Sequence record: PQ571291
Origin: Escherichia phage EF3-1
DNA: 50,066 nt
Reading direction: 5' to 3' (one strand)
Part shown: piece after piece, positions 41,662 to 41,825 of the stretch
Layout: each line of letters starts with the position of its first letter
Position numbering within the stretch: position 1 is the first letter of the stretch
Notes under the pieces: model-generated
Told to the model about the DNA's origin: nothing
The model's database searches: none
The model's input: the letters and a program-made list of their open reading frames with translations, nothing else
Position numbers and translations under genes: made by a program

Positions 41662-41825
41662 CCTGAATCGCTGAGCGGTGATAGTATTAATCCCGTAGAC
41701 AAACGAGGCGCAAAGAAGCGCAACGCGTGAGATGATTCTCACACTTTCAGCTAACAAGCTCGGTTGCATAGTGGTTAAGCAACGCCGCAGACCCGTAAGC
41801 GGCAACAATTCCAGATGATTGCATA

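Follow-up and report, generated by a model that had tools for sequence, protein, structure and literature searches.

A structured RNA with its own sigma-70 promoter is conserved upstream of terS in T1-like phages and is a candidate riboregulator

Introduction

What is encoded by a 164-bp gap between two small genes in the genome of a T1-like phage? The gap (positions 41662-41825) is located in a stretch of 50,066 nucleotides from Escherichia phage EF3-1 (sequence record PQ571291), which was analyzed in full and is hereafter called the window. The two ends of the window (1-141 and 49926-50066) are identical over 141 bp, and thus the window represents one complete genome of 49,925 bp written with an overlap. 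The phage belongs to Tunavirus, and its region 41200-42450 shares 93-95% identity with T1 and some 60 other Tunavirus genomes. T1 itself counts among the original Delbruck phages. In a 2024 re-annotation, the shut-off of host synthesis and the function of an intergenic 21-nt repeat were still listed as open questions (PMC11447400).

The original prediction for this gap, made from the nucleotide sequence of the window, was that it lacks an ORF, carries local hairpins and a weak tRNA-like string, lies at the end of an early gene block, and could encode either a small RNA or a regulatory leader. We find that the gap carries a promoter with a family-wide consensus, that its RNA covaries at the level of the + strand, that it is under purifying selection, and that its position is syntenic throughout the family. 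We treat the gap RNA as a new RNA family, for which we found no earlier description, although its general kind is known.

Results

The locus and its coding potential

The gap lies between orf67 (41458-41661), which corresponds to T1 orf58, and orf53, which corresponds to T1 orf57. Three small genes separate it from the downstream terS, whose coding sequence starts at 42467, and terL is read from 43031. The ORFs that flank the gap match PHROG families with E values of 1e-28 to 1e-34. The features downstream of the gap are the following.

41826-41987, + strand: orf53, first gene of the transcription unit (phrog_6666, E 3.9e-34)
41968-42153, + strand: orf61, an RKMG..C.SC protein (phrog_2919, E 3e-32)
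42155-42382, + strand: orf75, predicted membrane protein and last gene of the unit (phrog_5976)
about 42391-42415, + strand: intrinsic terminator at the end of the unit, immediately ahead of terS (terminator scan; annotated in T1 and Chapo)

The orf75 homolog in T1 is annotated with a single transmembrane domain, and orf75 itself has a weak DUF7299 match that falls below the cutoff. The idea that the gap marks the end of the early block does not hold, since the unit runs on to the terminator at 42391-42413. The downstream gene orf53 had been described as a 53-aa ORF lacking a Shine-Dalgarno (SD) sequence. The SD is indeed weak (AGATGA at 41813-41818, versus AGAGGA in Tunavirus relatives), but the implied doubt about the gene is misplaced, because the phrog_6666 match (E 4e-34) indicates that orf53 is real. 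The substitution T41816 (GAGG to GATG), which destroys the orf53 SD, is absent from the Tunavirus sequences compared. The orf53 start codon lies within a perfect palindrome of 13 bp, TTGCATAATGCAA (41820-41832), which is found only in Tunavirus.

The earlier statement that the gap has no ORF is correct in the sense that no conserved ORF exists, although unconserved frames of 28 aa (+ strand) and 94 aa (- strand) are present. The 28-aa frame (41732-41818) is the only + strand ORF of at least 20 aa in the gap, and it requires a T at 41733 where relatives read C (GAGACGA, compared with GAGATGA in the window). This C-to-T change, which creates the ATG and falls in the loop of hairpin P2 (below), was not seen in the Tunavirus sequences compared. 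On the - strand, a stop-free frame provides the 94-aa ORF, which begins with TTG, and 90-119 codons are open in Tunavirus. However, the spacing between the two most conserved blocks of the gap ranges from 73 to 98 nt and includes all residues modulo 3 across genera, LF82-10 has no open - strand frame, and neither the 28-aa nor the 94-aa ORF has a PHROG match. We therefore conclude that the - strand frame, which is not conserved between genera, is not a gene, and a hidden protein gene was rejected on these grounds for both strands. A leader peptide following the SD-like sequence AAGAGG was also rejected, as no start codon occurs at a conserved position in the genera compared.

A conserved sigma-70 promoter

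A promoter begins 4 bp before the start coordinate given for the gap in the original prediction, which had missed it. Its parts are as follows.

41658-41663, + strand: -35 hexamer TTGACC, from a promoter scan; overlaps the TGA stop codon of orf67
41664-41681, + strand: 18-nt spacer with a CTGAnnGG motif and the TG of the extended -10 (41679-41680)
41682-41687, + strand: -10 hexamer TAGTAT, TG-extended, from a promoter scan
41694-41695, + strand: predicted transcription start, placed by a conserved GT 6-7 nt past the -10

With TTGACC, an 18-nt spacer, and TAGTAT preceded by TG, the gap promoter has the form of an Escherichia coli sigma-70 promoter, for which we required a TTGACA-like -35 and a TATAAT-like -10 separated by 16-18 bp, the -10 having A as its second and T as its sixth nucleotide. 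To judge its conservation, we collected the 46 nt upstream of covariance-model matches, using a model that is blind to the promoter, which gave 47 distinct sequences from at least 10 genera. All 47 carry TTGAC and TAnnnT, and in all 47 the conserved GT lies 6-7 nt past the -10, which leads us to predict from conservation that transcription starts at about 41694-41695. The spacer is 17 nt in 37 of these sequences and 18 nt in the remaining 10. The CTGAnnGG spacer motif is more variable, being absent in Rogunavirus and located 9 nt further from the -10 in DTL and PsgS01F. In W011D the -35 is retained even though the upstream stop codon is located elsewhere. For the related phage TLS, three canonical promoters have been listed, and the gap-type promoter is not among them (PMC11447400).

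A different promoter class might be associated with the 21-nt repeat AATAGCAC-N3-TTGnTAAA(A), of which the window holds 14 copies (+ strand: 22462, 34245, 34982, 36040, 37327, 38709, 39229, and 40602; - strand: 49157, 33311, 32133, 31669, 31252, and 2997), with a variant located before terS at about 42431-42451. In 13 of the 14 repeats, a TAnnnT hexamer (TATAGT, TATTAT, CATTAT, TATGAT, TAGAAT, and others) starts exactly 19 nt after the repeat, and it is often preceded by TG. This arrangement fits a class in which the repeat would serve as an UP-like or activator element for an extended -10, distinct from the canonical promoter of the gap. Another apparent + strand promoter, followed by GCCGTGAACATAATCACGGC and a terminator-like T-run, is present at 49133-49190. 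This promoter at 49133 carries the same +1 motif as the gap promoter, but it was rejected and left uncounted because a - strand copy of the 21-nt repeat, read in reverse complement, accounts for its hexamers. The likeness of its +1 region to the 5' end of the gap RNA is probably coincidental.

Architecture of the RNA

From the predicted start to the orf53 start codon, the gap RNA would measure about 131 nt (41695-41825), with five predicted hairpins.

41695-41707, + strand: single-stranded 5' segment GUAGACAAACGAG (family consensus GU-N-N-AC-R-N-AAGAG, from cross-genus alignments)
41708-41721, + strand: hairpin P1 (GCGC-AAAGAA-GCGC), by covariation
41722-41726, + strand: linker AAC(GC), with both A nucleotides invariant and the C nearly invariant in the alignment
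41727-41742, + strand: hairpin P2 (GTGAGA-TGAT-TCTCAC), by covariation; the first hairpin of the original prediction, GTGAGATGATTCTCAC
41749-41760, + strand: hairpin P3 (AGCT-AACA-AGCT), by fold prediction in the variable middle region; weakly supported
41763-41783, + strand: hairpin P4 (GTTGC-ATAGTGGTTAA-GCAAC), present only in Tunavirinae and Vilniusvirus
41784-41803, + strand: hairpin P5 (GCCGC-AGACCCGTAA-GCGGC), by covariation; the second hairpin of the original prediction, GCCGCAGACCCGTAAGCGGC
41804-41825, + strand: tail AACAATTC with the weakened orf53 SD; no U-run

The 5' segment is unpaired in the minimum free energy fold and mostly unpaired in the centroid structure, and only 1 of its 13 sites varies within Tunavirus. 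All of the strings that had been quoted as local hairpins are present in the window, and the two hairpins they describe, P2 and P5, both covary. The counterpart of P3 in SRT8 is ACUU/AAGU at the same place, and P3 is not conserved beyond close relatives. The string earlier described as D-arm-like, GCATAGTGGTTAAGC (41766-41780), forms the loop of P4, a third covarying hairpin. The loop of P5 ends in CCGUAA, a sequence that occurs family-wide, and P5 is homologous to the terminator hairpin of other genera. In the window, no intrinsic terminator was found after P5, which is followed by AACAATTCC in the tail AACAAUUC without a U-run.

Two GenBank records break within P4: OR845145.1 ends and OR844655.1 starts at the base that matches window position 41770. 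Sister contigs from the same samples span this point, and the break probably arose in the assembly graph, between T1-like phages present together, and not from a physical end of the DNA.

Covariation and purifying selection

Folding energy is weak, with z-scores of -2.0 for the 164-nt gap and -1.65 for the 131-nt RNA, compared with -2.1 for the reverse strand. These scores are not significant and do not distinguish the strands, and so we rejected them as sole proof. The case for a structured RNA rests on comparative data.

Evidence for covariation is strong in P1 and P2. When 26 diverse 5' modules are aligned with MAFFT, these two stems are paired in 96.4% of their cells, 69 cells carry double changes (21 ± 5 in shuffles), and the covariation score is 0.73, compared with at most 0.105 when partners are slid. 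An alignment built with the covariance model (83 matches, 50 distinct), which leans towards the structure by construction, gives 97.6% of cells paired, changes on both sides at 8 of 9 pairs, 128 double-change cells versus 36 when shuffled, and a covariation score of 0.70. All four pairs of P1 swap among GC, CG, UA, and AU (97.4% of cells paired), whereas 4 of the 5 pairs of P2 change on both sides (97.8% paired), yielding stem variants such as GUGAG/CUCAC, GCAUC/GAUGC, GCAGC/GCUGC, GUGAC/GUCAC, and GUAGC/GCUAC. Across 12 lineages, P5 is 100% paired with compensatory changes in 4 of 5 pairs, and it contains + strand U·G pairs whose counterparts on the opposite strand would read A·C. Three stem positions of P4 change on both sides among five lineages, where the stem reads GTTGC/GCAAC in Tunavirus, GTTGG/CCAAC in SRT8, GGGC/GCCC in IME347 and KLB19, and GTGC/GCAC in LF82-10. 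Covariation, together with G·U and U·G pairs that fit only the + strand, indicates that the structure belongs to an RNA of the + strand. This is also the strand of the promoter and of all neighboring genes.

Selection within Tunavirus points in the same direction. Among 14 Tunavirus genomes, 14% of the sites in the gap are variable, compared with 30-69% of third codon positions in five flanking ORFs; codon positions 1 and 2 of these ORFs are variable at 1-25% of sites. P4 varies at none of its 22 sites, and P5 at 1 of 20. Structural conservation in relatives had been named as a check on the proposal, and it is borne out by P1, P2, and P5, which covary across genera.

Distribution among Drexlerviridae

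A set of 80 viral loci was fetched with a terS profile; terS is common to 836 records of the T1 family. The covariance model R1 has one match in the window (63 bits), and the next best match scores 5 bits. The promoter and RNA module are found in 83 of 95 Drexlerviridae loci from at least 12 genera, and every match is on the coding strand of terS, about 0.6-0.8 kb upstream of this gene. The 12 loci that lack an R1 match comprise five whose upstream sequence is truncated, six Webervirus short forms with scores under the R1 threshold although the element is visible by eye, and one other locus, L097 (IMGVR_UViG_3300048920_000084). The latter is the sole sampled locus with enough upstream sequence that is entirely without the element.

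Genera that carry the element include Tunavirus, Sertoctavirus, Badaguanvirus, Vilniusvirus, Eclunavirus, Changchunvirus, Warwickvirus, Tlsvirus, Rogunavirus, Webervirus, and Loudonvirus. R1 also matches the Braunvirinae phage DTL, Pseudomonas phage PsgS01F, and Yersinia phage YP10S2, and the element is present in unclassified phages of Pseudomonas syringae and Yersinia ruckeri. The hosts of these phages belong to Escherichia, Shigella, Klebsiella, Salmonella, Enterobacter, Citrobacter, Yersinia, and Pseudomonas. The AAGAG portion of the 5' segment is missing in Rogunavirus, as are P2 and the CCGUAA loop in Webervirus. Thus, the common core is small and consists of the promoter, GUAGAC, P1, and AA(C/G).

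Outside phages, a 16-mer scan of bacterial genomes gave only chance matches among the matches listed, which score 13-19 bits with the covariance model, compared with 37-68 bits for full-length members. A blastn search of 5,426 E. coli genomes gave no match that would represent a host homolog.

The 3' end and the downstream genes

The 3' end of the element differs between genera. In Tunavirus, W011D, Tlsvirus, and Eclunavirus, the terminal hairpin has 5 bp and no U-run, an SD follows, and the RNA is a leader. In Warwickvirus-like phages and several uncultivated lineages, the P5 homolog carries a covarying, GC-rich lower stem of 9 bp, with CA/GUAAGA as its internal loop and GGU/ACC as a small upper stem, and is followed by U5-U8 (examples are L073, L077, L079, L082, and L116). 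A simple terminator scanner is blind to these hairpins because their loops exceed 8 nt. The SD of the next gene comes directly after the U-run in these relatives, and this gene has no promoter of its own. The short form of Webervirus combines the 5' segment and P1 with a GC hairpin whose U-run is weak.

In other lineages a tRNA gene starts 2-12 nt past the element. This tRNA is tRNA-Ser(GCU) in Vilniusvirus and tRNA-Arg in Rogunavirinae and Braunvirinae, with an additional tRNA-Ile in PsgS01F. Such an abutting position suggests that the tRNA is expressed from this promoter as well, and that the 3' end of the element would be set by RNase P in these phages. Genes for tRNAs after the element (Ser-GCU; Arg; Arg and Ile) were located in four lineages, at L004 1551-1638, L026 1364-1451, L051 1391-1466, L137 1276-1458, and L139 from about 1425 onward. 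The tRNA of KLB19 overlaps with an annotated CDS.

The identity of the first gene downstream varies as well, as this gene may belong to the orf53 family, to the orf61 family directly (Webervirus, Eclunavirus, Yersinia phage YP10S2, L112, L119, and L134), or to an unrelated ORF (Warwickvirus-like phages). Because the downstream gene differs between genera, the RNA is more conserved than its cargo. In the phage studied here, where no terminator is present and the RNA runs into orf53, the element is a leader. In other genera, a hairpin with a U-run or a tRNA boundary suggests that a discrete small RNA is made.

Comparison with databases and the literature

Rfam release 15 yields nothing within the RNA (41695-41825) at E values up to 10. 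The lone Rfam overlap with the gap is a chance match to a snoRNA model at 41623-41676, with 18 bits versus a gathering score of 50. Rfam searches of 10 relatives from other genera likewise returned nothing on the element, and the records examined have no RNA or regulatory feature annotated there. The covariance-model and tRNA scans that had been proposed as checks thus find no known family on the gap RNA. The element is not mentioned in the open-access papers on the T1 family that were searched or in a 2025 review of phage small RNAs, and it may have been described in older work such as the 2004 T1 genome paper. We found no transcriptome paper on the T1 family in the open-access literature.

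A search within the phage for sequences complementary to the 5' end or the P5 loop gave matches at or near chance, with none in the downstream unit, and the closest complement of the P5 loop is on the wrong strand. Mimicry of a CRISPR repeat by an RNA anti-CRISPR was considered and rejected, as local alignments to type I-E and I-F repeats are no better than shuffles (21-198 of 200 shuffles score at least as high).

Discussion

A proposed riboregulator in two forms

The proposal that the gap encodes a small RNA or a regulatory leader has held up well: the sigma-70 promoter is conserved in 47 of 47 sequences, and both named hairpins are kept by compensatory substitutions. The explanation that we tentatively favor, at somewhat less than even odds, is an autonomous riboregulator that exists in two forms, as a small RNA and as a leader, with the invariant single-stranded 5' end and the conserved loops as its working surfaces. 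Its sigma-70 promoter is among the few canonical promoters of these phages. Three signs of autonomy are that the best-conserved part of the transcript begins at +1, that several genera have the 9-bp GC-rich terminal stem with U5-U8, and that the cargo after the RNA changes between genera and includes tRNA-Ser and tRNA-Arg with or without tRNA-Ile.

Under this model, host RNA polymerase with sigma-70 would initiate at the gap promoter, at about G41695. The first ~110 nt would be non-coding and would fold into a conserved RNA domain composed, in order, of a 13-nt purine-rich 5' end, P1, the AAC linker, P2, a variable middle (P3 and P4), and P5 with CCGUAA. In this phage, the domain would stay fused to the orf53-orf61-orf75 mRNA that ends at 42391-42413, and so would act as a leader unless it is cut by a nuclease. 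Relatives with an intrinsic terminator would release a discrete RNA of ~105-135 nt, and relatives with an abutting tRNA would produce a longer RNA that is cut by RNase P at the tRNA. Several observations weigh against two forms. The copy in the window has neither a terminator nor a U-run, and so no discrete small RNA is encoded as such; the SD located right after the U-run in other relatives equally fits an attenuator; no target was found within the phage; and the core common to all genera is small.

Alternative explanations

The main rival explanation is that the RNA is purely a cis-acting leader that gates polymerase or ribosomes into the downstream genes, which we consider possible but rather unlikely. 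A factor that binds the conserved CA/GUAAGA internal loop could cause attenuation or antitermination at the terminal hairpin, a put-like RNA could make polymerase resistant to terminators and allow it past both the terminal hairpin and the terminator ahead of terS, or the same hairpin, located 8-10 nt upstream of the SD, could serve as a translational operator. In agreement with such roles, the RNA begins at +1 of a conserved promoter, genera with a U-run could express their downstream ORFs only by read-through, a strong terminator closes the unit before the late genes, and the terminator hairpin carries invariant unpaired nucleotides (ACC-GUAAGA) that resemble an operator. A precedent for a promoter-proximal RNA with two hairpins that acts without a need for protein is put of HK022 (PMC9378689). 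However, we see no conserved antiterminator pairing by inspection, single-sequence folds give no recurrent alternative pairing, and the P1 and P2 stems have 4-5 bp where put has long bulged stems, with no Rfam match. The terminator hairpin expected in the leader of an attenuator is absent in the window and present in several other genera. A gene-specific operator is also difficult to reconcile with a variable cargo that includes tRNAs and with a CCGUAA loop whose presence is independent of that of orf53 and orf61. The same variable cargo, together with a promoter that is the most invariant part of the element, would be expected if the locus were no more than an internal promoter whose transcript has a structured 5' UTR, shielding an mRNA or tRNA precursor from decay without any regulatory role. 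The 5' hairpins and the SD-like AAGAGG might then form a ribosome-binding stabilizer, and this 5' segment is indeed SD-like, yet no start codon follows it in any genus. We regard a mere stabilizer as improbable, as it would need neither the invariant loops (CCGUAA, GCGAUA, and AUAGUGGU), nor the nearly invariant P4 and P5, nor a terminator inside the RNA.

Two other identities seem very improbable. The weak D-arm string in the original prediction raised the possibility of a decayed tRNA gene or tRNA-like element, with P4 as the D-arm and P5 as the anticodon arm. The P4 loop AUAGUGGUUAA does resemble a D-loop, P4 and P5 are adjacent without a spacer, and tRNA genes abut the element in four lineages. 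Nevertheless, the P5 loop has 10 nt where an anticodon loop would have 7, neither a T-arm nor an acceptor stem is present, ARAGORN finds no tRNA or tmRNA genes in the window, and Rfam gives no tRNA match at E values up to 10. P4 is also missing from most genera that bear the element, purifying selection is strong where decay would be expected, and phages that have tRNAs keep the element as well, upstream of the tRNA. Relatedness to tRNA is therefore not supported. An equally remote idea is that the gap is a DNA-level site, such as pac, a replication origin, or a region bound by a regulator, in which the hairpins are incidental. The gap is near terS, CCGTAGAC occurs twice in some relatives, and CTGAnnGG is conserved in the promoter spacer. 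Against this stand the compensatory changes and one-strand G·U pairs, which point to RNA. Moreover, one paper places the pac site of T1 in the terminal untranslated region at the genome start (PMC7718038), whereas the gap lies at ~7.6 kb in the T1 record, and a replication origin is disfavored by the lack of a GC-skew inflection at the gap and of iterons or an AT-rich tract by inspection.

Significance

If the autonomous riboregulator that we favor acts throughout the family, it might reprogram the host in trans through its 5' end, or it might, in a put-like manner, carry polymerase through the terminators before the terminase and structural genes. We find this broader version attractive, although doubtful. 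One tentative lead is that the 5' end of the Warwickvirus type contains UAAGAGCG, the reverse complement of the lambda boxA sequence CGCUCUUA.

Among virulent phages, it is unusual for an RNA that has its own promoter and is supported by covariation to stay at one genomic position across subfamilies and host genera. If the RNA is a riboregulator, no control element made of RNA would have been described before it in the T1 family. The natural variants (terminated, tRNA-bounded, leader, and short Webervirus forms) constitute an experimental series. In addition, the model could allow annotators to mark the element in genomes, and spurious ORFs appear to have been called in the gap in PaulSarasin, Rogue1, and KLB19.

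Comparison with known systems

Hfq-dependent small RNAs such as RybB and OmrA/B act in trans through a 5' seed. The element in relatives with a U-run resembles these RNAs in having its own promoter, a single-stranded 5' end, an A/C-rich (AAC)n linker, internal hairpins, and a terminator with a U-tail. It differs in that the version in the window has no terminator or U-tail, and in that the T1-family RNA is encoded by virulent phages. The stable RNAs C and D of phage T4 are small structured phage RNAs that are co-transcribed with the T4 tRNA cluster. A similar arrangement is seen in Vilniusvirus, Rogunavirinae, and Braunvirinae, where the tRNA is 2-12 nt downstream, but most Drexlerviridae, including the phage studied here, have no tRNA at this location.

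In the Gifsy-1 prophage of Salmonella, a single promoter produces both IsrK, a short terminated RNA, and a read-through mRNA that shares its 5' part (PMC4825925). The relatives with a U-run have this same arrangement, with small phage ORFs downstream. However, there is no match in sequence or structure, and the Rfam isrK model matches only terminators elsewhere. IsrK also belongs to a temperate prophage, the copy in the window lacks a terminator, and no complement to the 5' end or the P5 loop of the T1-family RNA was found above chance within the phage.

The put RNA of HK022 is ~70 nt in length and forms two long stem-loops and an RNA triplex (PMC9378689). Compared by description only, P1 and P2 differ from it in having 4-5 bp and an AAC linker. 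The likeness to putL and putR, which need no dedicated protein, is one of layout: two hairpins lie near the start of a sigma-70 promoter and upstream of terminators, with P1 beginning at +14 and P2 at +33.
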